A stretch of 32,000 bases of DNA from Anaerosporobacter mobilis DSM 15930 (GCF_900142955.1 NZ_FRCP01000006.1:232583-264582), one strand, 5' to 3'. Positions 1 to 25,867 are shown, numbered from the stretch's first letter. Numbers and translations are program-made. The notes: generated by a model not told the origin, from the letters alone.

Positions 1-2135
1 AAGTATTTTCTTGAATTTTCTTCTACTTCATACTCTTGTTGTTTTACCATACTATAAGCAAAACCAGTTACATCCTCTGCACTATAACGTGGTATGATAA
101 TTCGATGTGTAAAGAATCTACGAAGCGTTTCTTCTTTCATCATTAATTCTTCCATATTTCTTGTACTATCCTCAAACAATACAAGAATTCTTCCATCAAA
201 ATGTTCTATCATCTGTATAATTGACTTCACTGAATTAGCATTCAATACGCTTGCATTCTCAATAACCAAAGATCCATCTGCTAATTGTTCCATCTTCTCA
301 AGCAAATTAATTTGATTCAACTTCAATGCACTAATCTTAGCCACTTTCTTTGTCGGAATACGGTTTAGTTTCCACATAGCAATTGCTATCGCTCTTGCTA
401 ATGAAGTTTTACCCGTTTGGATATCTCCACAAACCATAAAGTTATTACATTGCTTGCTATTATCCATATTTTCTAAGATCGAAAGTAATTGTTTTTTGAT
501 GGACTCATTATAGATGAAGTTTTGAAAAATAGTATTCAGATTAATACCATATGCATATGTGTTTTCACCATCTTCATAGATATCTTGGGAATCATGACGG
601 TAAGTCTTAGTAACATCATTCTCTTGTAATTGTCGCATTCTTTCTTTCATCTTATGCAACTCTTCTTTAGTAAGAGTATGTGCAGGCTCAGTTTGTGGCG
701 TCTCCTTATTATCTTCTGGTAATTCCTCTGTTGACTCCTGTGTTAATTCTTTTGCTTCTACTAGAGTTTCATCTTCTGGTAATATTTTGTCTTCCGATAG
801 CCTTTCTTCTTCCGATATCGTTTCTTCTTCTGATAGCGTTTTGTCTTCTGCTCCAACTTCTTCGAGTTTCTTAGTTTTCTCAGAAGTAATATCTTCTTGG
901 GAATCATTCATATCTGTAGGTGTTAATATAACTCCTACTTCCGTTACTGCATCTTCTAACCCTTGTACACTTTCAACGGCTTGTGTTAGATCCGCAGGAC
1001 TTTCCTCTTGAACAGTATCTTGTAGTTTGTCCTCTGCCTTCTCAAGTTCTTGTTCATACTCTTTAACTTTCACAACTGCATTCTCACGTGCATTTACTCG
1101 TGCTCTGACCTTATTAATCACCTCTGGTGTAAGAACATAATTTGTAGATTCTTCTTCCACTGTAGATTCTTCTATTGTAAGTTCTTCTGCTGCAGTAGTT
1201 TCTTCTGCCAATGCAGTTTCTTCTGCTAAAGTAGTTTCTTCTTCCCAAGTAGTTTCTTCTGCTAAAGTAGTTTCTTCTGCCAAAGATTGCGTCTCTACCA
1301 CCACATCTTCCTTAATTTCAGGCTCAATTTCTACTTCAGCTAAGTTAGTGTAATCACTTTCTATATTAGTTACTTTACCATTATCAGAATATAACGCTTC
1401 GCTATCCGTTTGACTGCTACCTAGGACAGTACTATCCATATCGCTTGGTGATGATACCGTAGATGGTTGGCTTACACCTCTTTGCATTTTTACCTGTCTT
1501 ATTACCTCTTCTAGACTTCTAGTAGCATCAAATTCACCAGCTCCTAGATTATCCGTAATGTTAAATCCACTTGTATAGTGTTCCTTTAATAATCGTGCTT
1601 TCTCAACCACGATTCCTTGTCCAAACCACAGAATAATATCACTACATTCATCTACACATTTATCTACTTGACCTGTTTTATGATATAACTTGGCGAGTTC
1701 ATAGGCCCATTCTTCCATATAATCTTCTTGCTTAAGCTGTTCAAGTGTTTCAATTCTCTGTGCATACGGCGTATGATTCGCTTTTTCTATTCGATAGCGT
1801 AACACCAAACGATAGGGATCTCTTGGAGCAATACGAAGATATTCATTATAAAACTCCTTCGTCTCCTCCATGTTTTTCATCACAATTGACAAGTCAATTA
1901 GCTGTTCGACAATCCTTCTAGAACAAGATTTTTCGTAAATCCTTAATAATATCTCCATGGCATCTTCATATTCATCATTGTGAATAAGAATCTCTGCTAT
2001 AACAGATAAGTCAGACATACTTCTAATCTTATCCACATTCATAGATTCAAGAATCTTCATTGCTTTCAGGTACTGCTTTTCCTGTGCAAGTCTCTTTATT
2101 TCTTTGATTTTCAGACTGGAAGCATAACGTTCCAT
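1..2135 (-). CDS. Helical-repeat (TPR-like) / acidic-repeat / AAA+ ATPase (CbbX-SpoVK-like) protein; its 3' end runs off the window
   Basis: Absent from the ORF track because there is no in-window stop. I read an uninterrupted minus-strand frame from ATG 2135-2133 (GGAGGT 7 nt upstream) down to position 1: MERYASSLKIKEIKRLAQEKQYLKAMKILES... The centre carries Glu/Thr-rich repeats (AEETTL-like x5, SEEE[TR][IL]). The C-terminal part has the P-loop FMVCGDIQTGKTSLARAIA (about 403-429), then GSLVIENASVL where a Walker B would lie. Confidence 0.8.
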   Translation of the reverse strand, partial: MERYASSLKIKEIKRLAQEKQYLKAMKILESMNVDKIRSMSDLSVIAEILIHNDEYEDAMEILLRIYEKSCSRRIVEQLIDLSIVMKNMEETKEFYNEYLRIAPRDPYRLVLRYRIEKANHTPYAQRIETLEQLKQEDYMEEWAYELAKLYHKTGQVDKCVDECSDIILWFGQGIVVEKARLLKEHYTSGFNITDNLGAGEFDATRSLEEVIRQVKMQRGVSQPSTVSSPSDMDSTVLGSSQTDSEALYSDNGKVTNIESDYTNLAEVEIEPEIKEDVVVETQSLAEETTLAEETTWEEETTLAEETALAEETTAAEELTIEESTVEEESTNYVLTPEVINKVRARVNARENAVVKVKEYEQELEKAEDKLQDTVQEESPADLTQAVESVQGLEDAVTEVGVILTPTDMNDSQEDITSEKTKKLEEVGAEDKTLSEEETISEEERLSEDKILPEDETLVEAKELTQESTEELPEDNKETPQTEPAHTLTKEELHKMKERMRQLQENDVTKTYRHDSQDIYEDGENTYAYGINLNTIFQNFIYNESIKKQLLSILENMDNSKQCNNFMVCGDIQTGKTSLARAIAIAMWKLNRIPTKKVAKISALKLNQINLLEKMEQLADGSLVIENASVLNANSVKSIIQMIEHFDGRILVLFEDSTRNMEELMMKEETLRRFFTHRIIIPRYSAEDVTGFAYSMVKQQEYEVEENSRKY
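1185..1285. repeat. In-frame tandem repeat of about 18 bp (5 units, one of 15 bp) encoding (A/L)EETT(L/W/A)
   Basis: Direct reading: agtagtttcttctgc[c/t]aa recurs with period 18 within the minus-strand CDS. A second, looser Ser/Glu repeat lies at about 770-850. Confidence 0.8.
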
Positions 2136-2399
2136 TTCCCGCACCTCCATATGCATACCGCAGAACCTCATACCAGTCATTTAGTATATTTTCTCTACAT
2201 GTTCCACGTTGTTACATCTATCCTTGTATAGTATAACAAAATCTACCATTTTATATATTTCATAGTTCTCCTTGTTATTATAGCATTTTTTGTCTACATA
2301 AGACAAGATAGCATTTCATTCAACTATAAATTTCATTATAAAATACTATATACTGATTTTCATCATGAAGTAATTTACACTACCAAAGTAACCAGCTTC

Positions 2400-2451
2400 T
2401 AAATCAAAAGAAGTCTTCGACTCTACAACACTAGTAGATGAAGACTTCTTT
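2400..2451 (-). terminator. Rho-independent terminator after the GH5 gene
   Basis: Perfect 12-bp stem, aaagaagtcttc (2407-2418) with gaagacttcttt (2440-2451), and a 21-nt loop. On the minus strand it is followed by TTTGATTT. Confidence 0.65.
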
Positions 2452-2465
2452 ATTTCAGTTATATA

Positions 2466-3500
2466 TTAGTTAACTGCCTTAACAATTGCCTCTTTAAGAT
2501 TAGGGGTAAACCATGTGAGATCACTACGATTGAATATTCCAAAATATTCATCTCCACTATTGTAATATCCATTATCCCACCAGATACAAGGTACTCCAAT
2601 GCCTGATGCCTTCTCTAAGTAATACGTTGCCCACTTGATTACTTCTTCCTCATTTGACACTTCCTTACCTTCTGCATTCACATGAGTTTTATTCACAGCA
2701 CCATATTCGGTAATGACTACAGGAATACCCTTCTTAATGAAAGCATCATTGATTAGCCCCATAACTTCATCAATTTCTTTATTCAGAGAGCCGTCCCAAA
2801 CCTCTAGACTTCCAATCTCATCTTTCGAATAGCAGAAATGATGCGGTGTATACGGATGTAGCGATACCGCTATATGACTATCTTGTGGAACACGTAATCC
2901 CTGTATCGCTTCTTCTGATACAGAAGCTCCTACTGTAGTTACTAGCAGACTTCTCTCCTGATTATTTCCACCAGTACTTCGTACCGCTTCCACAAAAGCT
3001 GCATCTAATTGATTCACATATTCACGATTTTCCTTAGAACCTCCAGTCCATTCGTTCTCACTGAACTCAATCCTTGGCTCATTAAGCGCCTCTAGTAATA
3101 GATGGTCATCATAGCAGGAAAGATATGATGCAATCTGTTTCCACATGATTTTATACTGTTCTAGTACTTGTTCAAATCCCTCTTTCTCCGGCTTAATCCA
3201 TTTGTTTTCATGATGCATATTAACAATTACATACATCTGATTATCATACGCATAATCCACTAACTCTTTCACTCTTGCTAGCCAAGTATCTGCAATCTTA
3301 TATTCAGGTGAAGGGCCAGTTTGCTCATGCCAAGTGACAGGAATACGAATTGTATTAAATCCAGCTGCTGCCACTACATCAATCATCTCTTTTGTTGTCT
3401 TCGGATTTTTCCATGCAGTCTCTCCACCAAAACAATCCATAGAATTTCCAAGGTTCCAACCTGCTTTCATAGCTTGTACTATATCCTTTGTACTTCTCAT
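2466..3500 (-). CDS. Glycoside hydrolase family 5 endo-beta-1,4-glucanase/mannanase-type enzyme, no signal peptide
   Basis: 344-aa ORF. GH5 hallmarks are GWNLGNSMD, RIPVTW, the acid/base motif LEALNEPR and the nucleophile motif VVITEYGA. The N-terminus MRSTKDIVQAMK has no hydrophobic leader. RBS AGGAGG sits upstream of the ATG. Confidence 0.85.
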   Translation of the reverse strand: MRSTKDIVQAMKAGWNLGNSMDCFGGETAWKNPKTTKEMIDVVAAAGFNTIRIPVTWHEQTGPSPEYKIADTWLARVKELVDYAYDNQMYVIVNMHHENKWIKPEKEGFEQVLEQYKIMWKQIASYLSCYDDHLLLEALNEPRIEFSENEWTGGSKENREYVNQLDAAFVEAVRSTGGNNQERSLLVTTVGASVSEEAIQGLRVPQDSHIAVSLHPYTPHHFCYSKDEIGSLEVWDGSLNKEIDEVMGLINDAFIKKGIPVVITEYGAVNKTHVNAEGKEVSNEEEVIKWATYYLEKASGIGVPCIWWDNGYYNSGDEYFGIFNRSDLTWFTPNLKEAIVKAVN

Positions 3501-3642
3501 AAAATACCTCCTAGAATGACAAAATGTGTCCCCAATTCTTAGTTCATCTATATTTATACATGTATTATACTATTGAGGGGCAACTATGAATATTGCAGTT
3601 ATTCTAGATGTTGTACTTGCAATAATAGTTATATTCATCGGT

Positions 3643-6600
3643 CTATTCGAACAAGCTTGTCTGTTCATACTGTAGCGGAATATATTCCATCTCCGTTGTA
3701 TCTACATTGCTGTGATACTCCACTACTACTGTTTGTTGTTTCTTATCGTTTAAACATTGTCCTAGTATATAATTCACATCAAACTTACCTGTTATAGCAG
3801 GTGTCGTACCTCTAGCAGGTACGATTAACTGCACCTTGTTCATCTTAAGTAGTTCAAAAATTGGTTCCCAGATGTAGACGTCTTTGGCAGCACCGAATGG
3901 GTTATCGATAAAGATAACTTTACGAAGTCCTTTATTATCGATATTGCCTGAATTCATATACGTAATATAGTTGATAATTGCGATCAAGAACTGAATATAG
4001 ATACCTTGTGATTGTCCCGTACTTCCTACTGCTTCTTCATAACGAAGGTGTCTACTTTGTTCTTTGATACGCTCTCTTTTATATAACGTCAACTTGATTC
4101 GATTCATATCCGTTACAATAACCGAGAAGAGACGTTTTAAAGATAACGATTCTCTGATATACTTAATCTTTTCGTTCGGTGTTTCATATTTATCAACACC
4201 AGCTACGATTGAATCAATATAGTCTGACATTCTCTGTCCTTGTAATTCCTCATTCACATATGGAATACTGAGACCAATCATCTGAATCTGTTCATTATCT
4301 AACATAATCTTTGAAAGCTTTGGTAGACGTTCTAGTGCCGCTTTCACATTATCACAACGTTGTAAACATTGATTCTCAAAGCTTTGCTTAATTCTCTCCA
4401 TATCCTCAAGGCCTTGTTCTATACGCGCTCTCTCCAAACGTATACAATCACATACTCCCTCTAGATTGCTCTTTAAGTCATTGGATTCTTCTAACGTTCC
4501 AGGCACTGTTACCGCAGTACGTAACTCCTGTGCAAGCTCATATGCCTTCAGAAGTTCTAATGTCTGTGCAGTCTTTTGTAATTGCTGATAGAATTCTTCA
4601 CGTTTTCTATTCGTATCTTTTACAATCGACTCTAAATCTCTAGAAAGCATCTTCACGAACCCTTCTATATCCTCTATATCTATACTTTCAACTTCTTTGG
4701 ACTTAACTAGTTCCATCTGACGATAGATTCTCTCCATATCGTCTTTGGCATTCTCGCAGACCTTAATAGCTCTTTCACTAAGTGCGAACTCCTCTTTCAT
4801 ATTCTGCTTCTTCTGTAGTATAACCTGAAGGGCAGCTTTTTGTTCCTCGATATTCGTATCTGCAGTTACTCGTAGAAGTGTCTCTTTGAATACATCACCG
4901 AACTTTTCTTCTGCTACATTTCGGGCTTGTTCTATTTTACCACCTAACTGATGCTTCAGTGCTTTCTTCTCATCCATACTTTCTCGGAGCTTGCTAAGAA
5001 TCGCTTCCCCATGAACATAATCGGCATTCTCACTCTGTATAATATCTTCACTTATAGCTACTAGCGAATGATTATTCTTCATCTCTTCTAACGTAGCTAA
5101 GCTGATCTTACGTTTTGCGATTGCTTTTAAACTTCGGTTCATGGCATTGATATAAGAATTAAGAAGACGTTCCTTATCTCCTAAATCACTGTATTCCTTC
5201 TCGAAAGCATCCTTCTTCCCTAAGAATCTTGCATCTAATTCCTCTTCTAATAGAGAAAGTACATCAAATTCTCCCTCCTTGTAGTACGGAAGGAAGAGAG
5301 TTGTCCACTGCTCTTTGCAAAATTTCAGTTGCTTATCCACAGAATCCACTTGCAGTTTCCACTGGTCATGTTTTGTTTTCCACTCGTCTCGTAATTGGCA
5401 GATTCGTTCATAACGACTCTGTAGTTCCTCACACGCGTTACGTAGTTGCGTACTCTCTTTTTCTAGTCCACGCTTTTGTGTAGTCACAGCTTCGATTTCT
5501 ACCAAACGTACGCGCTCTTGTTCATTTTCTTTCATAGTTGCAGTGATGGTAGTGATTTCATCAGACATCTGCTTCACAGACTGCTCTCTATTCATATAAT
5601 CAGAAGCTAGTTCCTGAATCTCTCTTGATAGAGAAGAGAGCTCCTGTTTGCTCTTCATATGATTTTGTTCCACTTCTGCACATTTTTTTCTATCTTCACC
5701 AAGATAATAACGGACTTTGTCCATATCCTTTTTGAGAATTTCTTCTTGCTGTTCTAATCTTCTAAGCTGTTCTTTTTCATCTTCTACTTCTCCACGAACA
5801 ACACTCTCTTCTTCCGCCATACGCTCTTCACGGTAGAATAACTCTTCTTCTCTCATTGCAAAGGTTATAGACTTCTTAGCGAAGCTTATGGTTCCTTGCT
5901 TGATTTCTTCTAGATTTAAAATCGGTATTGCATATGCACCAAAATCCTTACGCTTAAAATAACGGTCTTCCAACAATGACTCATACTCTTCCATAACAAT
6001 CAATCCATATGGTAGAATTGGTATCTTACGTAATATACGTTCTCTTTCCTTTTCAGGTAGCGTATGAAGATACGCGGTTCCCGTCATTACTTTGTCTTTA
6101 TATCTCTTCTCTAAGTATTCTTTTACCTTGGTTAACCCTTCACTCTCTACATCAAGATTTCGCTCCACAAGCTGCGTCAGATATCTTTCATTTATCTGGA
6201 TATGCTCTTTACACTTGACTAATTTTGTTACAAGTGCCTTATATTGCTCCTCTAACTCTTGTAAGCAATTATCTTTGGATACTATATGGTATACCTCTAA
6301 TAGCTTCTCATACTCCGCCTGGCGTATCTTATAACCTTCTAGCCAATCCTCGTATTCCTTAATTGTAGTAGTTATCCTAGTCTTCTTCTCTTCTTTGATC
6401 TGTAGACTGGTTTTAAGCATTACCATTGTCTCTTGACAAGAGTCTAGTTCCTGTCTGATTGCCTGCAACCTTCCTTCAGAAGCTTTGTTCTCTTCTTCTA
6501 CTTGGCTGATTGCCTCTGTAATCTCCTCAAAGAACAATAGACTTACATTCTTACGCATCTGGTTTAGTTTCTGTTGTAGTGCTACTACCTTTTCTTCGAC

Positions 6601-8037
6601 CATTGTAAATGCATTCTCTTTGATGGCACGTTCAATATCAAGATTTCTTTCCTCTTCGCCTGAATCACTTAGAACTTCGTCTGCTTCTTTTAATTTATCA
6701 AGTAATTCTGCCTTTGCAGTTTCTAAGTCCTGTACCTTCTTATCTACATGTACCTTTTTATTAAAAGCAAGCTGATTTAGTTCCTGAATCTCAACTTTAT
6801 TTCCACCTTTAATTGCTTCTAAGGACTCCTTTAATTCATCTCGATTACTTTTTTCCCTCAAATATTCAAGATAATCATTCATACTCTCTTTTAACGAGAT
6901 GTCCTTTTGCTTTCGTGCTAACATATCTTCTTGTAATAAAATTTCCCTTGTTAGTCGTTCTATCTCCTTATTGATTTGTGCAAGGTGTGTTTCGTTTTTT
7001 TGAAGTTTTGCCGCTTCTACAATAATCTCCAGATGCTTCATCTTCTGGTCTAAATCATCTTGTTCCTTACAAAGTTGCTCATAATGTGCTTGTTTACTAG
7101 CAATACATCTCTCATTATAGGTATACGCTTGGTGTAACTTCGTCTTTAGTTCTTTATCTCTTGTATAGACATGGTCAAGTATACTTAGCTGTTCTTTTAA
7201 TCCATCAATAATCTCGATCTGACGATCATAGAAATTAACAGTCGCCTTCTTCTGCGATAACTCAATTAATTTATCTTTGATACTTAGTAATGCCTGGGCC
7301 ATGGAATCTTCACTATCGTTCCCACCATCTAGATAACGGTTGTAAGCTTTTTGAATTATCTCTTCTATCAGAAGATCTTCTACCACCTTACGTGTTGTCT
7401 TATAATTGGTCTCAAAATACGTACGAACATGACCTTCTGTCTTATTAATTCCACGAATGATCTCCCATTCACTTTCATAGATGCCATAATTACTTATGAA
7501 TTGTTGATATTCTCCCTTACGATCGAACACTTCTACACGAAGTCCTGGATTTCTTTGTAATTCTTTTAAATATTGTTTGAGACCCGAATACGTAACGCGC
7601 TCATTCTCATTGATAAGTGGTAAATTACGAATATCATTCTCATTGTACTCACGGTAGAAGATACAGTAATTGAAATAATCAATGGAAGCAGTATCTTTCT
7701 CTTCCTGCGCCGTACCTTTTTTTGCACAGAAACCTGTTGTCATGTACTGAAAACCATCTTTTATGTTGTTATCATTTAACTTCCACTCAATCAAGGAATG
7801 AATGGTTGTACTCCCTCCTGATGTACGGAACAACTTCTCCACTGGTTGTTTATCATCTAATGTACAATTTGGGATTACCGTCTGCAATAACAGCAGCATA
7901 AGTACACTCTTACCACCGCCATTGGCAAGATCGTACAACATATTCTTGCCATATGGCTTCATCATGAAATCATCATAATATTGCGTACCGAAATTATATT
8001 TAACATTGTTTACACGCAATCTATTAATATGAGGCAT
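3643..8037 (-). CDS. Giant SMC-family ATPase, MukB/MksB/JetC-like (about 1464 aa)
   Basis: The track ORF is 3643..8091. I prefer ATG 8037 (MPHINRLRVNNVKY) because AAGGAGGA lies 8 nt upstream.
- N-terminal head: P-loop LANGGGKS (7907-7930) followed by VLMLLLLQTVIPNCTL, which parallels the MukB segment [25 protein letters not shown].
- Arm: about 1000 aa of E/K/Q/L-rich coiled coil, interrupted by a non-coiled hinge-like segment VMTGTAYLHTLPEKERERILRKIPILPYGLIVMEE (about 5850-6095).
- C-terminal head: signature-like GSTGQSQG (about 4003-4031), Walker B-like VIFIDNPFG (3891-3919) and QLIVPARG, which parallels MukB LSTGE...LLFLDEAARLD...QLIIAAPE. Confidence 0.75.
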   Translation of the reverse strand: MPHINRLRVNNVKYNFGTQYYDDFMMKPYGKNMLYDLANGGGKSVLMLLLLQTVIPNCTLDDKQPVEKLFRTSGGSTTIHSLIEWKLNDNNIKDGFQYMTTGFCAKKGTAQEEKDTASIDYFNYCIFYREYNENDIRNLPLINENERVTYSGLKQYLKELQRNPGLRVEVFDRKGEYQQFISNYGIYESEWEIIRGINKTEGHVRTYFETNYKTTRKVVEDLLIEEIIQKAYNRYLDGGNDSEDSMAQALLSIKDKLIELSQKKATVNFYDRQIEIIDGLKEQLSILDHVYTRDKELKTKLHQAYTYNERCIASKQAHYEQLCKEQDDLDQKMKHLEIIVEAAKLQKNETHLAQINKEIERLTREILLQEDMLARKQKDISLKESMNDYLEYLREKSNRDELKESLEAIKGGNKVEIQELNQLAFNKKVHVDKKVQDLETAKAELLDKLKEADEVLSDSGEEERNLDIERAIKENAFTMVEEKVVALQQKLNQMRKNVSLLFFEEITEAISQVEEENKASEGRLQAIRQELDSCQETMVMLKTSLQIKEEKKTRITTTIKEYEDWLEGYKIRQAEYEKLLEVYHIVSKDNCLQELEEQYKALVTKLVKCKEHIQINERYLTQLVERNLDVESEGLTKVKEYLEKRYKDKVMTGTAYLHTLPEKERERILRKIPILPYGLIVMEEYESLLEDRYFKRKDFGAYAIPILNLEEIKQGTISFAKKSITFAMREEELFYREERMAEEESVVRGEVEDEKEQLRRLEQQEEILKKDMDKVRYYLGEDRKKCAEVEQNHMKSKQELSSLSREIQELASDYMNREQSVKQMSDEITTITATMKENEQERVRLVEIEAVTTQKRGLEKESTQLRNACEELQSRYERICQLRDEWKTKHDQWKLQVDSVDKQLKFCKEQWTTLFLPYYKEGEFDVLSLLEEELDARFLGKKDAFEKEYSDLGDKERLLNSYINAMNRSLKAIAKRKISLATLEEMKNNHSLVAISEDIIQSENADYVHGEAILSKLRESMDEKKALKHQLGGKIEQARNVAEEKFGDVFKETLLRVTADTNIEEQKAALQVILQKKQNMKEEFALSERAIKVCENAKDDMERIYRQMELVKSKEVESIDIEDIEGFVKMLSRDLESIVKDTNRKREEFYQQLQKTAQTLELLKAYELAQELRTAVTVPGTLEESNDLKSNLEGVCDCIRLERARIEQGLEDMERIKQSFENQCLQRCDNVKAALERLPKLSKIMLDNEQIQMIGLSIPYVNEELQGQRMSDYIDSIVAGVDKYETPNEKIKYIRESLSLKRLFSVIVTDMNRIKLTLYKRERIKEQSRHLRYEEAVGSTGQSQGIYIQFLIAIINYITYMNSGNIDNKGLRKVIFIDNPFGAAKDVYIWEPIFELLKMNKVQLIVPARGTTPAITGKFDVNYILGQCLNDKKQQTVVVEYHSNVDTTEMEYIPLQYEQTSLFE

Positions 8038-8761
8038 TGTCGTTATCCTCCTTTGACATAATTTCATATAAGCGACCACGCTCTTCTTCAAAATACCTAG
8101 TGATAATAATACGGAAACGGTCGGTTATATAGTAACGTTCTTCACTCTCAAGAAACAAGGCTTGCGACAATAAGAAGTTGAATACAAGCTTCATATAGCC
8201 ATATCTTGATCCTCTTGATGCCTTCCCAGTCATATTCTCTTCATTAGACACACTAGGAAGTTCATCCCACAGATTTGCTATTGCTTCAAAACTATTTTCT
8301 TCCAGTTCGTTCAAGCGGAACTGTTCCATACCAGCTATTACATTATGTAACCCAGCATCGACTGCCTTCATAACATCTTCAATTCTCACGTACTCCGTAT
8401 ACGTATAGGTACCTGATCCCGTATAAAACTTGGTGATAATCTGATAGATAATAAAATAACATAGATATAGTTCCTTATTCAAACGTACACCAATTAAACG
8501 ACGTAGTTCCTCATTCGTATATCCAAACACTCGATTTTGATTCCCTGCTGTAATGAATAAAGTCTCATTGTATTCATAAAGCTTAAGATTCATCTGGGTT
8601 AACATCGTATCTAATAGATTCGCTACTTCAGCATGATCACGGTATTCTTGATATAGTTCCACATTCTTCGATGTCCTCATACTAACCTCTTCTAAAGCAA
8701 TTAGTTTTCCGAACAACTCCATGGCTTTCTCTAAACTACGGTTATCCATATTAATCCACAT
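8024..8761 (-). CDS. Putative MukE/MksE/JetB-like accessory subunit (function inferred from position and size only)
   Basis: 245-aa ORF, or 241 aa from the alternative ATG at 8749. Its start overlaps the stop of the upstream gene, and its stop overlaps the start of the SMC-like gene by 14 nt (ATGCCTCATATTAA). It is the middle gene, about 240 aa, with an acidic C-terminus, as in MukE/JetB. I recognise no catalytic motif. Confidence 0.55.
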   Translation of the reverse strand: MWINMDNRSLEKAMELFGKLIALEEVSMRTSKNVELYQEYRDHAEVANLLDTMLTQMNLKLYEYNETLFITAGNQNRVFGYTNEELRRLIGVRLNKELYLCYFIIYQIITKFYTGSGTYTYTEYVRIEDVMKAVDAGLHNVIAGMEQFRLNELEENSFEAIANLWDELPSVSNEENMTGKASRGSRYGYMKLVFNFLLSQALFLESEERYYITDRFRIIITRYFEEERGRLYEIMSKEDNDNASY

Positions 8762-10313
8762 ACTCCTTCCTTACAAATTCAATATTCGAAGTAAAGAAAC
8801 TAGCCTTATCTCCACCAGATACAATCTGAATGTTCTCTATCATTTCTTCGCTTAATTCCTTTGACATAACAATTTCAAAATGTAACTTCCTATATTTTTC
8901 ATTCTCTGGTGACCGTAACATATCGGAAATAATGCCTTCAAGGAACGTGTCAGGTTCTTTCTCGATTTCCCATATGCGATATTCTTTCTTCTGGCATAGA
9001 TGCACTAAGAACGAATAGTAATCACTGTTCTTGAAAATCTCATCAAAATATTTCACTTCAAGCTTACGGTTAAAAGAAACCAAATCAAATTGTTTCTTTG
9101 CAATTAGCAACTCAAATAAGGTTCTGGCAATTGATATGAAATTGCTCCTAATACGTTCGTCTTCTTTCTCATCTTCATATGCATACGTAGTTATTTCAAT
9201 TTCTTCTACTTTCTCAGCCTGTTCTTCTGCACTCTGCGGATACGTAGTAAGTTCATCGATACTAGCCAGATTCCAGGTCTTTCGTATATTCGGTAATAAA
9301 AGCGGTTCAATCATGGCTTTTAGTAAACTCGTATCTTGCTTCAAACGGATCTTAGATTCATAATCTCTAAAATCAAAAGACGCTCGTAACCTACCTAATT
9401 TGGCAGTTCTAAGCATCTCATCCGCTTTCTTTTGCAGGTCCATACAATCTACTAGTAACTCATTGTGTTTTCCAATCGCTTTTAACAGCTCCTTCTCTAA
9501 CTCATGTATCTCTTGTAGAGATTGTATATAAGAGTCTGTTTTCCCATCTTCGTCATTACCTAACTCCGCTTTTTCTACCGCTTTACGAATCAATTCTGTA
9601 TTCTTTGAAAACAACCTTTGTTCTTCTTCAAACCATTTCATCCCCGTCTTCACGAAACTATCATAGGCTTTCATACCTTCGAATACGTCATTACTTAGTA
9701 CTTGAATCACTTCATTCTTACGAAGGCTAAGCATATTCACTTCATGATTAATACGACGAACAACTTGAATTCCCGATCTAAAATCCTGCGAACGAATCAT
9801 CTTCTCTAATAATAGTTGTTCAATATTAATCTTACTTTCATCTTTAATTTCCTTCGTATCAAGATAGAATTCAATTGCATCAGAAGTAAGGGTATATGTA
9901 ACTTGATCCCCCTCTAACTGGCTATTAATTAACTTTACACGAGTTACATTCTTCTTACGCGTGGCTGGATCATAATAATCCATATAGAACGGTTTTCCCT
10001 CGTTGTGAATCTTATCGAATATATATCCAATTAATTCCTTAGTCTCTTCAGATAATGAAGGTATACCAAAATCTCTTTCTAATAACGAGGCCAAAAAAGC
10101 AGCATATCTTGCATATGTCACTTCCATATTATTAAAATTATTCTCTTCTATAAAAAAGCGTAATACCGCCATTAGCACATAACCCATGTCGATATCCGCA
10201 TATTTCCCTTCTTTATACTGTGTGAGGGAGTACTCTTTAATTCTAAAAAACGGGTAGTATTTCTTTAGATTTTGCATACGTTCATAATGAAAATCTACAA
10301 CTTCTTGTATCAC
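8751..10313 (-). CDS. Putative kleisin-like MukF/MksF/JetA subunit (function inferred from position, size and architecture)
   Basis: 520-aa ORF with a GTG start at 10313 preceded by AGGGAGGG (6-nt spacer). It has a globular N-terminal region, a central coiled-coil/acidic linker (EEQAEKVEEIEITTYAYEDEKEDER) and a globular C-terminal region. It is the first gene of the triad, as with mukF/jetA. Confidence 0.55.
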   Translation of the reverse strand: MIQEVVDFHYERMQNLKKYYPFFRIKEYSLTQYKEGKYADIDMGYVLMAVLRFFIEENNFNNMEVTYARYAAFLASLLERDFGIPSLSEETKELIGYIFDKIHNEGKPFYMDYYDPATRKKNVTRVKLINSQLEGDQVTYTLTSDAIEFYLDTKEIKDESKINIEQLLLEKMIRSQDFRSGIQVVRRINHEVNMLSLRKNEVIQVLSNDVFEGMKAYDSFVKTGMKWFEEEQRLFSKNTELIRKAVEKAELGNDEDGKTDSYIQSLQEIHELEKELLKAIGKHNELLVDCMDLQKKADEMLRTAKLGRLRASFDFRDYESKIRLKQDTSLLKAMIEPLLLPNIRKTWNLASIDELTTYPQSAEEQAEKVEEIEITTYAYEDEKEDERIRSNFISIARTLFELLIAKKQFDLVSFNRKLEVKYFDEIFKNSDYYSFLVHLCQKKEYRIWEIEKEPDTFLEGIISDMLRSPENEKYRKLHFEIVMSKELSEEMIENIQIVSGGDKASFFTSNIEFVRKEYVD

Positions 10314-10395
10314 ACTTATCCCTCCCTAATCTAAAATGCTGCCCTTTATCATACCATATTTCTATCAAACTGCATATAACAAAATGTGACAAGAC

Positions 10396-10442
10396 ATAAT
10401 AAAAAGACAACTATTATCGCATTCCAGTCGATAAAAATTGTC
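10396..10442 (-). terminator. Rho-independent terminator after the 779-aa gene
   Basis: Minus strand reads GACAATTTTTATCG-ACTGGAATG-CGATAATAGTTGTC, a 14-bp stem with 12 Watson-Crick pairs and 1 GU pair, followed by TTTTTATTAT. It lies about 75 nt after the stop at 10517. Confidence 0.6.
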
Positions 10443-10516
10443 CTCTTATTACCAACGGATGTTTCAACCCGCTAGGCTACTACTATAGTAAACTTGCATA
10501 TTTTAAACCAATATAA

Positions 10517-12856
10517 TTATAACTCATTATAGTATGCTCTCGTCTCAATTAACTCTTGCGTTAATTCTATACCTTCTTTTTCTAACGCTTTATAACGAAG
10601 GTCGATTTCATGGATCTTCTTACTATTCTCTCTGTTGAATCGCGTCATGGCTTCTGCGAATAAAGGTTGATTCATAAGACGCTCGCGAATTGGTTTCTTG
10701 AATGGGCAGTACATGGCAAGTAATTCTCTTACATACTTATTCAAGCGTATAGCACCCTTTGATTCATTCTTAATCCAATTCACATAATCAATAACAAAGA
10801 TTTCTCTAGAATTACTCTTTCCTTTTTGAATCTGCGACTTAATTCTCTCTTTTGTTTCTGGTGATAAATCACGATTCTTCTTATAAAACTGAATATAGTC
10901 AACATACTCTGATGTGAGTGATTTGTATTTGATATTATTCCAAGCAGTTCCTTGAATACTTCTGCAAAGTTCCCAGTGAAATCTTCCAAAAACCTTAATT
11001 AGCATATCCTCTAATTCAACTTCAGCAAAGCAAGGTAATAGGAATCGACCACTAGTGTCTCTCTTCTTACCTGAAATCTCTTGCCACATAACACCGTTAA
11101 TACCTGCTGTTGGTAAGAGAATAATATCCGGAAAAACTTCCTTTTGAATATATTCTTTCTCTATATTCTTTTCCGCATCATAATAAAGAGCTTCACGATA
11201 GAATACGGAATAATCAATCTCTCTTAATTGATTAATAACGTAATTAACCTTAGCTGCTGTTACATAGGTTGAGCGTAAACTCTTTACAAACATATCTTGG
11301 TGAAGAATAGGTATGAACGAATAAACTTGTCCATTAACAAGGCGATTATTACATTGGAACATGTTAATAATTTCATAATTTAACTTTTTGAGGGAGTCAT
11401 TTAACAATGCCTTCTCTTCTTCCGCAGACATACGAATAGACCTCTTCATTTCACGAATTGATTCTGTATAGTCTAAATCAAATTCACTCTTTGAAGGCTC
11501 CCTACGTCCTTCATAGATCTCAACCAACCAATCTCTAATATTATAAACTTTACATGGTATACTTTCATCTATCTGAGTATCTAGGTAATATAATTCTACT
11601 AATTGTTGTTTTGTTAATAATGTTTCATCAAAAAAACCATAGCGTAAGAAAAGATCAATTACTTTATCTGTATTCTTTTCATTATAGGCTCTTAAAAACA
11701 CAGTTTGATACATCGGATAAAACATCTTAGATATGCCTCTACGAATTGCTCTTGCTTCATCTGAGGAATCGTATTTATCTGTAAGGTTCCTAAACATGGC
11801 AACATATTTCTTAAGTTCAACCGTTTCGTCAGATCCAAGCTGTGCATACTCAATAATTTTTCTCATAGAGTCTTGTAACTCATTCATTACCTTCATCTCA
11901 TCGACTTCTTGCAACTGATCATTATCCGTATCCTTCTTATCGATTTCAACCGATGTCCCTGTAAGTAAAACAGAATATAGCTGTTCCATTCTATCGCGAT
12001 TAATATATAATGCTCTAGCAGTTTTAGTTGAAAGTAATTTCTCCGCGCTATTAATCTCTTCAATTATTTGATCAATTAATACATCTAGTTCCTCATTCTT
12101 CTTTCCAAGTTTATGCACTTCAATTGCAATATTAATTGCTTGGTAGAAGAGTGAATCCCCCGTCTCACTTATCATATATTCAAGTAATTGACTAACATAA
12201 ACTGCTCTTTCTCTTGTCTCTGTGATGTATGTAATAAAATCTGCCGCGATTTCATTAACATGACGTGTCGTAAGTGCTTCGCCGCAGGCAAAAAAGGCTT
12301 TCTGTATATCAACAGGTACTTTACTAAGCACGCTGTAATAGTCCATATTAACACGATTTCGTAATACTTCTGCCGGGAATGGCTCAAGAGTTTCTAAAGA
12401 GTCCATAGGATTCACACGAAATCCTACCTTCGCTGCTAACGTTTTGAACTCTGAATATGCATAACATAAAAACTCATACAACTTTTTTGCTTTTAGATCA
12501 AATTCAACATAGGTCTTACTTACCTCAACTAGATATCTTGATAAGCTAGCTACTAACAATCCTGAATAATCCTTATTCCCTTCTATAATTGCTTTGATAC
12601 TGTCCTTATTCGTCACCTCAAAAGGGAACAATACTACATCATCAAAAGCTATGTAACTACTAACAAATCTCCCCGCGTATAAATCAGTAACCCCTATAAA
12701 ACTTCCCGAACCAACCACCACTCTAGATCCATCATTCTGAATTAATACTCTCCCCTTAAGTACTAAACAAATGGTAGATAAACTCTCGTTCTCTCCATAG
12801 ATTTCTGTCCCTTTTATTAGCTGGTTGACTGTGTGTGGATTAAGACTCACTCCCAT
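10517..12856 (-). CDS. Large uncharacterised protein with an N-terminal cyclic-nucleotide-binding-like (CAP beta-roll) domain
   Basis: 779-aa ORF with RBS GAGGTG upstream. Residues about 10-110 (LIKGTEIYGENESLSTICLVLKGRVLIQNDGSRVVVGSGSFIGVTDLYAGRFVSSYIAFDDVVLFPFEV) fit the cNMP-binding beta-roll pattern. The phosphate-binding cassette looks degenerate: FIGV instead of FGE, and SSY instead of R[ST]A. I recognise nothing in the remaining 650 aa or so. Confidence 0.7.
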   Translation of the reverse strand: MGVSLNPHTVNQLIKGTEIYGENESLSTICLVLKGRVLIQNDGSRVVVGSGSFIGVTDLYAGRFVSSYIAFDDVVLFPFEVTNKDSIKAIIEGNKDYSGLLVASLSRYLVEVSKTYVEFDLKAKKLYEFLCYAYSEFKTLAAKVGFRVNPMDSLETLEPFPAEVLRNRVNMDYYSVLSKVPVDIQKAFFACGEALTTRHVNEIAADFITYITETRERAVYVSQLLEYMISETGDSLFYQAINIAIEVHKLGKKNEELDVLIDQIIEEINSAEKLLSTKTARALYINRDRMEQLYSVLLTGTSVEIDKKDTDNDQLQEVDEMKVMNELQDSMRKIIEYAQLGSDETVELKKYVAMFRNLTDKYDSSDEARAIRRGISKMFYPMYQTVFLRAYNEKNTDKVIDLFLRYGFFDETLLTKQQLVELYYLDTQIDESIPCKVYNIRDWLVEIYEGRREPSKSEFDLDYTESIREMKRSIRMSAEEEKALLNDSLKKLNYEIINMFQCNNRLVNGQVYSFIPILHQDMFVKSLRSTYVTAAKVNYVINQLREIDYSVFYREALYYDAEKNIEKEYIQKEVFPDIILLPTAGINGVMWQEISGKKRDTSGRFLLPCFAEVELEDMLIKVFGRFHWELCRSIQGTAWNNIKYKSLTSEYVDYIQFYKKNRDLSPETKERIKSQIQKGKSNSREIFVIDYVNWIKNESKGAIRLNKYVRELLAMYCPFKKPIRERLMNQPLFAEAMTRFNRENSKKIHEIDLRYKALEKEGIELTQELIETRAYYNEL

Positions 12857-13073: not shown

Positions 13074-13336
13074 CCGTGCGCCTCGCTTCGAATATTCTTC
13101 ATAAACGTTACCTTTCTAGTTAACTCGGCCCAGGCACCCTTACGGCACACAAGAGGTTTCGCTTAGTGCTGCTTCATTCCTGACCTGACACGGTTCACGA
13201 ATTCCTGTTGCGTAAGACCCAGACGTCAACATCACTTTTAAAGGGCAGCTCTACAATAGAATACCCTCGGACAAGACATCACCCCTGCTGTAGCGGATTG
13301 CAGGTACAGGGCACCGCTATCTCCCCGGCTGCACGG
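13074..13336 (-). ncRNA. ffs: Signal recognition particle RNA, long Bacillus type with Alu domain (scRNA / 4.5S homologue)
   Basis: The minus strand reads CCGTGCAGCCGGGGAGATAGCGGTGCCCTGTACCTGCAATCCGCT... and later ...GTGTCAGGTCAGGAATGAAGCAGCACTAAGCGAAACCTCTTGTGTGCCGTAAGGGTGCCTGGGCCGAG... Together these closely match the B. subtilis scRNA 5' Alu-domain segment and the universal helix-8 motif (E. coli GUCAGGUCCGGAAGGAAGCAGCCAAGGC). It lies immediately downstream of tadA, as in Bacillus. Ends are accurate to about +/-10 nt. Confidence 0.9.
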
Positions 13337-21107: not shown

Positions 21108-21385
21108 GCAAAACTCTCAATATGTTAAACTGCTTCTTAGCTAACGTACTATAACTAAAAAATGATAGCAAAGCACTGCTAGTACTTCTTAGTGTGTACT
21201 AGATAGTCTAGGAAGGCGAGGCATGGAAGCCGAGCCAGCCAGAGCTGAGGCAGGATGCCGAATCGAAGGCGTTTCCGCACCTATTGCAAAAACCTCTGTA
21301 CACACATAGAAGTACTAAAGTGCTAGCGTGTTTTGTGTTATAGTACGTTAGCTTAGAAGCTCTATTAAAGTGTATCGAGTTTTGC
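21108..21385. repeat. 278-bp long imperfect palindrome (arms about 90 nt) around a 98-nt GC-rich core; MITE-like or a structured RNA insert in the metG leader
   Basis: I compared the left arm with the reverse complement of the right arm.
- The outermost 9 nt, gcaaaactc, pair perfectly: 21108-21116 with 21377-21385.
- gcttcttagctaacgtactataac pairs with gttatagtacgttagcttagaagc at 23 of 24 positions.
- cactgctagtacttcttagtgtgtac pairs with gtacacacatagaagtactaaagtg.
- The core, 21200-21297 (ggaaggcgaggcatggaagccgagccagccagagctgaggcaggatgccgaatcgaaggcg...), is far more GC-rich than its surroundings. Confidence 0.8.
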
Positions 21386-21404: not shown

Positions 21405-21775
21405 GGCAAAAAAAATACGCCCTTAAGGAAATCCTATGATTTCGTTTAAAGACGAGATGAAGTCTCGTGATACCACTTTAATTCTTCTATTTTTCACAAA
21501 ATAGAACTTAACAACTGCTAACTACGCTATACAGGCTTTGTTATCCATTAAGTAATGTTAAACTAGCGTCGATGCCTTAGCAACAGTCTTGCATGGTAAC
21601 GGTTGCAGATTCCCGTCATTCCCTAAAGAGTATACACGTAAAATCCGTATAACTCATTCAGAAACGAAGCTCCAAGACCATCTTCCATACGCTTAGCAAT
21701 TACCCTTTCTCAGCTAACAGGGTTCTCTGTTAATGATTTACGCATGTACTCTTCTCTTCACAGCATTTTCATATT
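21405..21775 (-). promoter_or_regulatory. T-box riboswitch leader (Met-specific candidate) with intrinsic terminator
   Basis: All elements are read on the minus strand:
- AGAGA bulge plus a distal-loop GCTGAGA.
- AUG triplets in the specifier region (GCGTATGGAAG and GAATGAGTT).
- F-box-like CCGTTACCA.
- T-box sequence AATTAAAGTGGTATCACGAG (about 21463-21483).
- Terminator CGTCTTTAAACGAAATC-ATA-GGATTTCCTTAAGGGCG (21418-21454) followed by TATTTTTTTTG. Confidence 0.8.
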
Positions 21776-24145: not shown

Positions 24146-25867
24146 ATGGGCTATAAAAATTTTAATTCAAGTGTGTATTGTCCTGTGTTTTCTATTGCTA
24201 ACATTCAGGACTTTACTACATTTGAAAAACACTTCGATGAACTTGTAAAACATACTAACGTGGGCAAAGTTTATCTCGAGACTTATCGAGGCGGTAACAT
24301 GTTAATAGAAGAGGAACTACTAAAACTGAAATCATTCTTTGAATCAAAAGGTATGAAACTTGCAGGTGGTATCACTACTGAAGATGAAGACCATGGTGAT
24401 GGTGGATTTCATCCTTTCTGCTACACTTCTAGCCAAACAAGAGAGAAGCTCAAATCTATTGTTACGCTTACTTCCAAACTGTTTGATGAGTTTATCTTAG
24501 ATGATTTCTACTTTACAAACTGTCGTTGCCCAAGATGTATCGAAACAAAGGGAACTCGTTCTTGGACACAATTTCGTCTAGATTTGATGAAAGATATCTC
24601 CGAAAATGCTATCGTTAAGACAGCGAAAGAAGTAAATCCCAATGTCAAAGCAATTATCAAATACCCTAACTGGTATGAGCATTATCAAGATGCTGGATAT
24701 AATCTAGAAGATGAACCACTTATCTTCGATTATATATACACTGGAACAGAAACCAGAAACCCTATGTATTCACAGCAGCATCTACCTAAATATCTTAGTT
24801 ACTTTATCGTTCGCTATTTAGAACATGTAAAGCCTGGAAAAAACCTAGGTGGTTGGTTTGATCCATATGAATGCACCTATAACCTGACTTCTTATCTAGA
24901 TCAGGCTTATCTTACCCTATTTGCCAAAGCGAAGGAAGCTATGTTATTCAATCTATCATCCTTAACCAAAGATCCTACCTTTCATAACTTTGCACCTGCA
25001 GTAGGACGAATGATGGAGGATGTTGACGGATATCTTCAATTATTAGGAACTCCAACAGGTGTGGCAACCTACCTTCCATACCATAGCCACGGCGAAGACT
25101 TTTTACACAATTATATTGGTATGTGTGGTATTCCGCTTGACCCTTATCCAACATACCCTAGCGAAGCTAAGAATATTCTATTAACAGCAAATGCGGCTTG
25201 CGATCCTGAGATTATAGAGAAAGTTAAGAAGAGTTTGATGCATGGTGCTGATGTTATGGTGACTTCCGGTTTTGTAGAAAAACTTGGTGATGACTTCCTT
25301 GAATTCATGCATGTCACTTATACCTCTAGAAAAGCACTTGTAAACTCCTACGCATATTCCCCTAATGGCGGAGTATCTTATGGCGGACATGTAGAGACTT
25401 CTAACAAGATTCTAATACCTCAACTTGAGTTCTTTACCAACGATGTGTGGGAATTAATTGGAGGTTTAGGAACGGATAACAACTTCCCTATCCTATTAAA
25501 AACCAAGTACGGAAACGGTCGTATGTTTATCGTTACTATTCCAGATGATTTTGGCGATTTATACAACTACCCTGAAACAATTCTTAACACAATACGAGAA
25601 TCCATTCAAGATCAGATGCGTGTACGTCTACAATCACGATCAAACGTAACGCTCTTTACGTATGATAATGATACTTTCATCGTCCGTTCATTCAATCCAT
25701 TCATACATAACATCTCTATCGTTATTAACGAGGAAGATGTTGTCCTATATGATTTGGAAAGAGAACGGGAAGTTACTGGTACCTCAATTAATGGAGAAAC
25801 TATCTTTTCAGTTGAAGCATATCCATCTACTAATATGGTATATCAAATCAAGCGATTAAATCCTTAA
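24146..25867 (+). CDS. Uncharacterised cytoplasmic protein; weak resemblance to TIM-barrel glycoside-hydrolase-like proteins (speculative)
   Basis: 573-aa ORF. Strong RBS AAGGAGG is present and there is no signal peptide. It is a monocistronic unit between two terminators. I recognise no confident family motif. Confidence 0.7.
   Translation: MGYKNFNSSVYCPVFSIANIQDFTTFEKHFDELVKHTNVGKVYLETYRGGNMLIEEELLKLKSFFESKGMKLAGGITTEDEDHGDGGFHPFCYTSSQTREKLKSIVTLTSKLFDEFILDDFYFTNCRCPRCIETKGTRSWTQFRLDLMKDISENAIVKTAKEVNPNVKAIIKYPNWYEHYQDAGYNLEDEPLIFDYIYTGTETRNPMYSQQHLPKYLSYFIVRYLEHVKPGKNLGGWFDPYECTYNLTSYLDQAYLTLFAKAKEAMLFNLSSLTKDPTFHNFAPAVGRMMEDVDGYLQLLGTPTGVATYLPYHSHGEDFLHNYIGMCGIPLDPYPTYPSEAKNILLTANAACDPEIIEKVKKSLMHGADVMVTSGFVEKLGDDFLEFMHVTYTSRKALVNSYAYSPNGGVSYGGHVETSNKILIPQLEFFTNDVWELIGGLGTDNNFPILLKTKYGNGRMFIVTIPDDFGDLYNYPETILNTIRESIQDQMRVRLQSRSNVTLFTYDNDTFIVRSFNPFIHNISIVINEEDVVLYDLEREREVTGTSINGETIFSVEAYPSTNMVYQIKRLNP

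Follow-up and report, generated by a model that had tools for sequence, protein, structure and literature searches.

A jetABC operon of the type III Wadjet families without jetD in Anaerosporobacter mobilis DSM 15930

The jetABC operon and the identity of its proteins

A 32,000-nucleotide stretch of DNA of Anaerosporobacter mobilis DSM 15930 (GCF_900142955.1, NZ_FRCP01000006.1:232583-264582), hereafter the window, carries three co-directional open reading frames (ORFs) on the minus strand at 10313..8751, 8761..8024 and 8091..3643. Profile matches identify their products almost certainly as the JetA-JetB-JetC core of a type III Wadjet system, whose motor subunit JetC is an ATPase of the structural maintenance of chromosomes (SMC) type. 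The fourth gene of such systems, jetD, is absent from the locus, a finding of high confidence. Coordinates of genes, sites and motifs are collected in Table 1.

A preliminary description of this DNA had reported three coupled minus-strand ORFs of 520, 245 and about 1464 amino acids, and reading of the junctions confirmed this. The jetA stop codon TAA (8753-8751) overlaps a jetB frame begun at ATG 8761 and stands 1 nt ahead of ATG 8749. The start at 8749 is favoured by PADLOC and by homologue alignments, in which profile position 1 falls on residue 5, and it yields a JetB of 241 amino acids. The jetB stop and the jetC start overlap by 14 nt, as read directly from the sequence. The ribosome-binding site AAGGAGGA precedes the jetC ATG at 8037 with a spacing of 8 nt. 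From this ATG, JetC has 1464 amino acids; the ORF has 1482 if read from the TTG at 8091. The N-terminus MPHINR(I/L)RVNN is kept in all JetC homologues aligned. The 203-nt gap 5' of jetA showed no consensus promoter or terminator. A promoter and terminator consensus scan of positions 3400-10700 was uninformative on the operon boundaries and found fewer promoter-like sites than in shuffled sequences. Homologous triads are present at more than 100 other loci, and the three-gene feature is therefore real and not a product of chance.

The assignment is carried by full-length matches to the type III models of PADLOC. JetA matched JetA3 (PDLC00560, E=5.5e-199, residues 1-496 on profile positions 7-499 of 511), JetB matched JetB3 (PDLC00571, E=8.5e-96, residues 5-242 on positions 1-237 of 239) and JetC matched JetC3 (PDLC00581, E=0, 1629 bits, residues 1-1462 on positions 1-1470 of 1473). 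JetB also belongs over its full length to the Pfam family DUF6063 (PF19539, E=4.6e-61). Pfam and NCBIfam offer no family for JetA or JetC, which are labelled 'hypothetical protein' at NCBI; PADLOC alone resolved both. Among the 120 matches listed in a search of a large protein database with JetA, a range that does not extend to the distant type III systems, all shared an identity of at least 47% and carried the annotation 'hypothetical'. None of the three Jet proteins matched a MukF, MukE or MukB model of Pfam or NCBIfam, and no PADLOC type I model was among the matches of the triad. JetC scored 17.9 bits with the Smc model SMC_prok_B (TIGR02168), below the cut-off of 567. Neither JetC nor its neighbours had a Pfam, NCBIfam or PADLOC match to SbcC/Rad50 or Mre11/SbcD.

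The preliminary description had recognised a three-gene SMC operon of the Wadjet or Mks type. The PADLOC matches bear this out, as does the predicted fold of JetA described below. The same description had considered the proteins unassignable to a named family and possibly undescribed, which is contradicted by the type III matches of all three and by the DUF6063 membership of JetB. The size of JetC, which had appeared anomalous and MukB-like, is ordinary for the class: JetC3 profiles comprise 1453-1494 positions and the JetC proteins of six canonical type III loci 1462-1705 amino acids. The length of 1000-1150 amino acids pertains to JetC of type I Wadjet.

The model of JetA resembles a kleisin. 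The AlphaFold2 prediction from a 51-sequence alignment (pLDDT 78.8) has an N-terminal winged-helix-like domain of helices and a β-hairpin, a helical bundle, a disordered linker at residues 340-378 and a C-terminal domain. The top Foldseek match in the PDB was MukF (9gm7_C, E=2.4e-4, probability 0.98). Seven of the eight top matches were MukF or JetA chains, including 3euh_A, 7nz2_C1, 9gm9_D and JetA of Escherichia coli (8as8_E). TM-scores were low (0.13-0.23), and a MukF-like kleisin fold of JetA is predicted with moderate confidence. For JetB, the JetB3/DUF6063 family and the operon position suggest a putative KITE subunit. HMMER profiles of JetA, JetB and JetC found only coiled-coil or spurious matches among PDB sequences. 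The hhalign comparisons of JetB with E. coli MukE (E=0.15) and of JetA with E. coli MukF were not significant; the Walker A region of JetC aligned with MukB at E=1.8e-4. An earlier alignment by eye of both JetC head halves to MukB was thus reproduced for the Walker A segment and not for the other one.

JetC has the architecture of an SMC-like ATPase: a split ATP-binding cassette (ABC) head, a long coiled coil and a hinge, with P-x-LPY conserved in the centre of the protein. The roughly 1000 amino acids between the head halves gave coiled-coil-type matches (SMC4, SMC6, lamin). The motifs LANGGGKS to IPNCTL, STGQS, IFIDN, QLIVPARG and IPILPYGLIVMEE, quoted in the preliminary description, are all present in the translation and are invariant or near-invariant in homologues. 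The catalytic glutamate of Walker B is absent, replaced by Asn 1379 (IFID-N-PFG). The pattern hhhD-N-P-F-(G/S) was found at this site in every type III JetC examined, with or without jetD at the locus (the window and loci L013, L102, L103, L105 and L107-L110), and the head motifs are the same in both groups. The asparagine is not a sign of decay because it is common to the canonical jetD-containing type III systems.

Absence of jetD and relation to canonical loci

JetD models and PF09983 had no match with any window ORF of at least 120 amino acids or with the ORF at the left edge, in either PADLOC or Pfam. Searches with JetD3 by tblastn and phmmer (E<=10) in the window and in loci L001-L021 returned neither jetD nor a remnant of it, except the jetD of locus L013 itself. 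In the window, the canonical jetD slot is a 203-nt gap, followed by the gene of an unrelated 779-amino-acid protein, here called X779. Contigs with an identical JetB reach 10 kb farther downstream and are also without jetD. The preliminary description had allowed that the triad might be a known Wadjet subtype with jetD nearby outside the window. The subtype is indeed known; the slot falls within the window and is taken up by an unrelated gene. JetA3, JetB3 and JetC3 are present in the operon and JetD is not, and since JetD, the Toprim nuclease responsible for plasmid cleavage by Wadjet, is a defining feature, the triad is not filed as a complete Wadjet system.

The absence extends to the relatives. 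The sample of 101 related loci comprised 15 genome loci, 6 exact-match contigs and 80 metagenome loci, the latter being the best 80 of 392 confirmed relatives and mostly from the human gut. Only one of the 101 has jetD (L013). In the 82 loci with enough flanking sequence, the gene before jetA was recR (37), X779 (9), a fructose-bisphosphate aldolase gene (8), jetD (1) or a spurious or unrelated ORF (27). Three further contexts were also without jetD, two of them with a JetA named at NCBI from cultured isolates (Clostridium sp. Marseille-P299 and Diplocloster agilis). A database search with JetD3 found 193 relatives. The named ones were from Clostridium sensu stricto, Acetivibrio, Ruminiclostridium, Tepidibacter and Methanosarcina, with none from Lachnospiraceae. 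Two JetD3-like proteins, P0303 and P0315, originate from Methanosarcina sp. 2.H.A.1B.4, which suggests from sequence similarity that archaea, too, have type III-like Wadjet nucleases.

Seven canonical loci served for comparison: a Clostridium metagenome-assembled genome (L013), Clostridium bowmanii (L107), two metagenomic contigs (L108 and L109), Ruminiclostridium cellobioparum (L110) and the megaplasmids of Pontibacillus (L102) and Bacillus bombysepticus (L103). They are all arranged as jetD-jetA-jetB-jetC, with jetD immediately 5' of jetA. Their jetD encodes 346-377 amino acids (PF09983/DUF2220), jetA 501-537, jetB 230-252 (DUF6063) and jetC 1462-1705. In RefSeq, canonical loci carry the label 'Wadjet JetD' next to these same proteins. 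The jetA of L013 is broken into ORFs of 267 and 201 amino acids (1879-3413), which reflects a frameshift, a pseudogene or an assembly error; its orthologue in C. bowmanii is intact with 511 amino acids. In R. cellobioparum, a PhD/ParE toxin-antitoxin pair (18002-18587 in L110) comes after the Wadjet locus, an accessory-type context unlike the housekeeping context of the jetD-less loci.

The history of the loss was traced with neighbour-joining trees on concatenated JetA, JetB and JetC (about 2190 columns, ingroup unrooted). The four close jetD-containing loci clustered in 100% of bootstraps, and the X779-linked clade of the window had a bootstrap support of 92%. On these trees, the lineage of the window is the jetD-less group nearest to the canonical systems. 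A single loss needs a root on the stem of the jetD-containing loci. Outgroups placed it there in 3% of replicates, and jetD-less monophyly was recovered in 1% in outgroup-rooted trees; at an outgroup identity of 16-24%, such rooting is unreliable. The tree topology points to one or more losses of jetD, probably at least two.

The triad without jetD is under strong purifying selection and is not a pseudogenised remnant, as supported by low substitution ratios, stable ORF lengths and the kept head motifs. The ratios of nonsynonymous to synonymous substitution rates (dN/dS) were 0.04-0.07 for jetA, 0.02-0.07 for jetB and 0.07-0.09 for jetC, calculated for the window against relatives at 69-96% identity. 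They are comparable to the 0.04-0.09 of the housekeeping gene tadA. The jet ORFs are intact with stable lengths in about 100 loci. No indels or clustered substitutions that might mark a lost JetD-docking surface separate the jetD-containing from the jetD-less proteins; only scattered single positions do.

Genomic context and inheritance

The window is ordinary chromosome by its gene content and composition. It holds metG with a T-box leader, tatD, rsmA, a DUF6128 gene, a pair of GNAT and radical S-adenosylmethionine genes, tadA, the signal recognition particle (SRP) RNA, X779, jetABC, a GH5 cellulase gene and the gene of a protein with tetratricopeptide repeats (TPR), an acidic region and an AAA ATPase domain (TPR-AAA). 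The GC content is uniform, and the jet region equals its flanks. In distant Lachnospiraceae, whose JetA is 45-50% identical, the genes run tadA ... pfkA-dnaX-recR, jetABC, TPR-AAA. This synteny of dnaX-recR, jetABC and TPR-AAA is kept in about 50-60 loci, with median gaps of 82 nt between recR and jetA (n=48) and of 133 nt between jetC and TPR-AAA (n=60). In the window, the GH5 cellulase gene separates TPR-AAA from jetC, and X779 occupies the interval from the SRP RNA to jetA, a place taken by pfkA-dnaX-recR in other Lachnospiraceae.

Co-inheritance of the triad with this backbone is indicated by the distances between lineages. RecR distances correlated with those of JetA, JetB and JetC at Pearson r=0.89-0.91 (Mantel p=0.001, 15 dereplicated lineages). 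No relatives of the triad were found in viral contigs. A plasmid collection contained only four matches, which were distant, from Bacillaceae and jetD-containing. The orders tadA-scr-dnaX-yaaK-recR and metS-yabD-ksgA of Bacillus subtilis, which are origin-proximal, would by analogy place the window locus close to the origin as well.

Table 1. Features of the jet operon, motifs of JetC and neighbouring features in the window (nucleotide positions counted from the first letter of the window)
Feature	Position	Strand	Remarks
jetA (type III, predicted kleisin subunit)	8751..10313	-	520 aa, GTG start
jetB (type III KITE-position subunit, DUF6063)	8024..8749	-	241 aa from ATG 8749; 245 aa from ATG 8761
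jetC (type III SMC-like ABC ATPase)	3643..8037	-	1464 aa from ATG 8037
JetC Walker A	residues 37-44		
JetC conserved mid-protein P-x-LPY	residues 673-677		
JetC signature STGQS	residues 1339-1343		
JetC Walker B IFID-N	residues 1375-1379 (window 3898-3912)		
JetC QLIVPARG	residues 1403-1410		
jetC ribosome-binding site AAGGAGGA	8046..8053	-	within jetB 3' end; sequence read directly
jetA ribosome-binding site AGGGAGG	10321..10327	-	7 nt 5' of GTG 10313; sequence read directly
Intergenic gap 5' of jetA, 203 nt	10314..10516	-	canonical jetD slot, empty; X779 beyond
X779, 779 aa	10517-12856	-	weak cyclic-nucleotide-binding N-terminal domain; no other recognisable domain
Large bacterial SRP RNA	13074-13336	-	188.6 bits; directly after tadA
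TPR, acidic low-complexity, C-terminal AAA ATPase protein	3-2180, off left edge	-	directly downstream of jetC in ~60 loci

Some further features of the window and of related loci were recorded. The adjacency of tadA and SRP RNA is that of the classic Firmicute block tadA-ffs-dnaX-ybaB-recR; in the lineage of the window, dnaX-recR does not occupy this place. Upstream of metG, a TwoAYGGAY RNA motif (21166-21330, plus strand, 71.9 bits) adjoins the T-box leader (21445-21770, minus strand, 100.7 bits). An ORF of 573 amino acids (24146-25867, plus strand) had no Pfam or PADLOC match. Among the related loci, one labelled 'Bacteroidales bacterium H4' (L007) is nearly identical to that of Clostridium sp. 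CAG:632 (L006), with a flanking aldolase of 98.9% identity; the name Bacteroidales for L007 probably stems from faulty binning.

Function of the triad and comparison with known systems

By analogy to JetABC of types I and II and to MukBEF/MksBEF, JetA would bridge a JetC dimer to which JetB binds, and the assembly would form an ATP-driven motor that extrudes DNA loops. It would load on DNA and use ATP to extrude or compact loops. The extrusion-then-cleavage of small circular DNA could not be finished without JetD. Nuclease-free DNA organisation is therefore the most likely activity. Such an organiser could have the chromosome as its target, where it would resemble three-gene MksBEF as an accessory condensin, or plasmids, which it would leave intact. 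The favoured reading, to which we assign a probability of about 0.6, is a type III Wadjet core of a lineage without JetD, which most likely serves as a nuclease-free, vertically inherited SMC organiser of DNA. That its function is organisation of the chromosome is plausible by analogy, at slightly less than even odds. A second chromosome organiser had been one of the roles proposed in the preliminary description, and the genomic context now speaks for this putative role. A more detailed scenario is tentative: gut Lachnospiraceae may have domesticated the type III motor after one or several losses of JetD, as a vertically inherited second SMC complex beside dnaX-recR that would act in chromosome organisation or segregation with an atypical D-N ATPase site, as the Firmicute equivalent of MukBEF/MksBEF.

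Several observations weigh against the favoured reading. The asparagine in Walker B may cause an atypical ATP hydrolysis throughout the type III class. A single-sequence AlphaFold2 model of JetB, with a pLDDT of 39, did not confirm the putative KITE fold. Evolution of the Jet proteins is 2-2.7 times faster than that of RecR. The jetD-containing group and the X779-linked clade were neighbours in 94% of bootstraps; the nearest kin of the triad are thus canonical defence loci, and the triad may have kept a role in defence. Elsewhere in the genome, a jetD or a different nuclease gene may possibly be present, as the absence covers the 32-kb window. Mobilisporobacter senegalensis has tadA-X779-TPR-AAA-DHH without jetABC or remnants of it. 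The triad is therefore dispensable in at least one relative, and X779 and TPR-AAA are backbone genes.

Some of these points feed the main alternative explanation, in which the triad still defends against plasmids or other foreign DNA: JetABC would sense small circular DNA and hand it to an unlinked JetD or other nuclease, or would interfere without cleavage, for instance by compacting or silencing plasmids. All three proteins belong to families of a defence system, their nearest tree relatives are complete systems, no group-specific remodelling distinguishes them from jetD-containing homologues, and the lack of the triad in one close relative with the same backbone is expected of an accessory function. 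This explanation is nevertheless unlikely. In the Wadjet and Mks systems studied, loss of the nuclease equals loss of the motor in its plasmid phenotype; in Corynebacterium glutamicum, mutants of mksG did not differ from those of mksB or mksF in plasmid phenotype (PMC10123090). An unlinked partner would be unusual given that jetD immediately precedes jetA in every one of the seven canonical loci, and no named JetD3 relative comes from Lachnospiraceae. The fixed housekeeping synteny and the co-divergence with RecR are atypical of defence islands. X779 was considered as a substitute for JetD, as effector or regulator of the complex. It occupies exactly the jetD slot of the sister clade, still adjoins jetA at 45-50% identity (L105, L111) and is under purifying selection, with 152 full-length homologues in Lachnospiraceae. 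Its residues 647-698 resemble the nuclease-fold family HSDR_N of Pfam at E=0.031, a weak match below threshold. This candidate was rejected as very improbable. Mobilisporobacter keeps X779 between tadA and TPR-AAA without jetABC, and X779 is hence independent of the triad. In most jetD-less loci recR and not X779 is the upstream gene, the gap between X779 and jetA measures 203 nt, and X779 had neither a PADLOC match nor sequence relatives in the PDB.

The two remaining explanations concern the nature of the proteins. A decaying, non-functional Wadjet remnant might be suspected from the lost fourth gene and from a Walker B motif without the catalytic glutamate, but is scarcely credible for three ORFs that are intact in about 100 loci, with dN/dS of 0.02-0.09 and invariant motifs, and with an asparagine that canonical jetD-containing systems share. 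An undescribed SMC family or another class of coiled-coil ATPase, such as Rad50/SbcC, deserves hardly any credence. It would agree with the 'hypothetical protein' labels of JetA and JetC, their lack of a Pfam or NCBIfam family and the failure of HMMER to find a relative of solved structure. It conflicts with the high-scoring full-length type III matches, with JetB as a DUF6063 protein and with the RefSeq annotation of canonical loci, which carry the same proteins beside 'Wadjet JetD'. The preliminary description had kept the Rad50/SbcC alternative in view; it finds no basis in a family match of JetC, and a partner of the SbcD/Mre11 type was not found.

Should the nuclease-free organiser indeed work as an SMC complex of the chromosome, commensals that are among the most abundant in the human gut would offer a natural example of a motor that passed from defence to housekeeping, or in the opposite direction. 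The complex would add a third nuclease-free lineage of the Muk/Mks-like kind and a clean system for the action of the Wadjet motor without its nuclease. The asparagine conserved in Walker B across type III poses a testable question on ATP hydrolysis by SMC proteins. Genome surveys that score JetABC matches of Lachnospiraceae as 'Wadjet' would overestimate plasmid restriction.

Type III Wadjet is the closest known system. The triad shares with it the profile families, the protein sizes, the A-B-C order, the translational coupling and the head motifs including the D-N-P-F Walker B. It differs in the lack of jetD, in its fixed housekeeping position and in vertical inheritance, whereas canonical examples are found on megaplasmids or in variable contexts. 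The type III class was reportedly introduced by Doron and colleagues in 2018, with a representative from Bacillus thuringiensis. In the searchable literature, type III is acknowledged without a published mechanism, type III loci without jetD are not mentioned and Wadjet in Lachnospiraceae is only touched in passing.

MukBEF of E. coli has the same F-E-B order and similar sizes (440, 234 and 1486 amino acids). The JetA model is nearest to MukF, and Walker A with the following helix aligns to MukB. In contrast, sequence similarity is not detectable between JetA and MukF or between JetB and MukE, and the Walker B of MukB is a canonical D-E. MukBEF takes the place of Smc-ScpAB in its hosts. Wadjet of types I and II (JetABCD of E. 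coli GF4-3 and JET-II of N. vireti) follows the logic of SMC motor, kleisin and KITE subunit that is predicted for the triad, and E. coli JetA 8as8_E was among the fold matches. The sequences are too diverged for a link by HMMER, and JetD is present in these systems and absent at the window locus. Their cleavage of circular DNA depends on JetD (bioRxiv 10.1101/2025.03.10.642339).

The three-gene MksBEF systems without MksG (MksBEF of Pseudomonas aeruginosa and MksB-MksEF of Mycobacterium smegmatis) are triads of kleisin, KITE and SMC subunits of the Muk/Mks/Wadjet lineage without a nuclease gene, a make-up predicted for the window triad as well. Three-gene Mks systems of both species are reported to act in the organisation of chromosome and replisome, and MksBEF complexes usually coexist with Smc-ScpAB (PMC11329512). 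The window triad differs in its type III rather than type I-like lineage, in a JetC of about 1460 amino acids and in the D-N Walker B. Its proteins are already known as the type III Wadjet core, and nuclease-free Mks triads are an established kind; new is the jetD-less form of type III.

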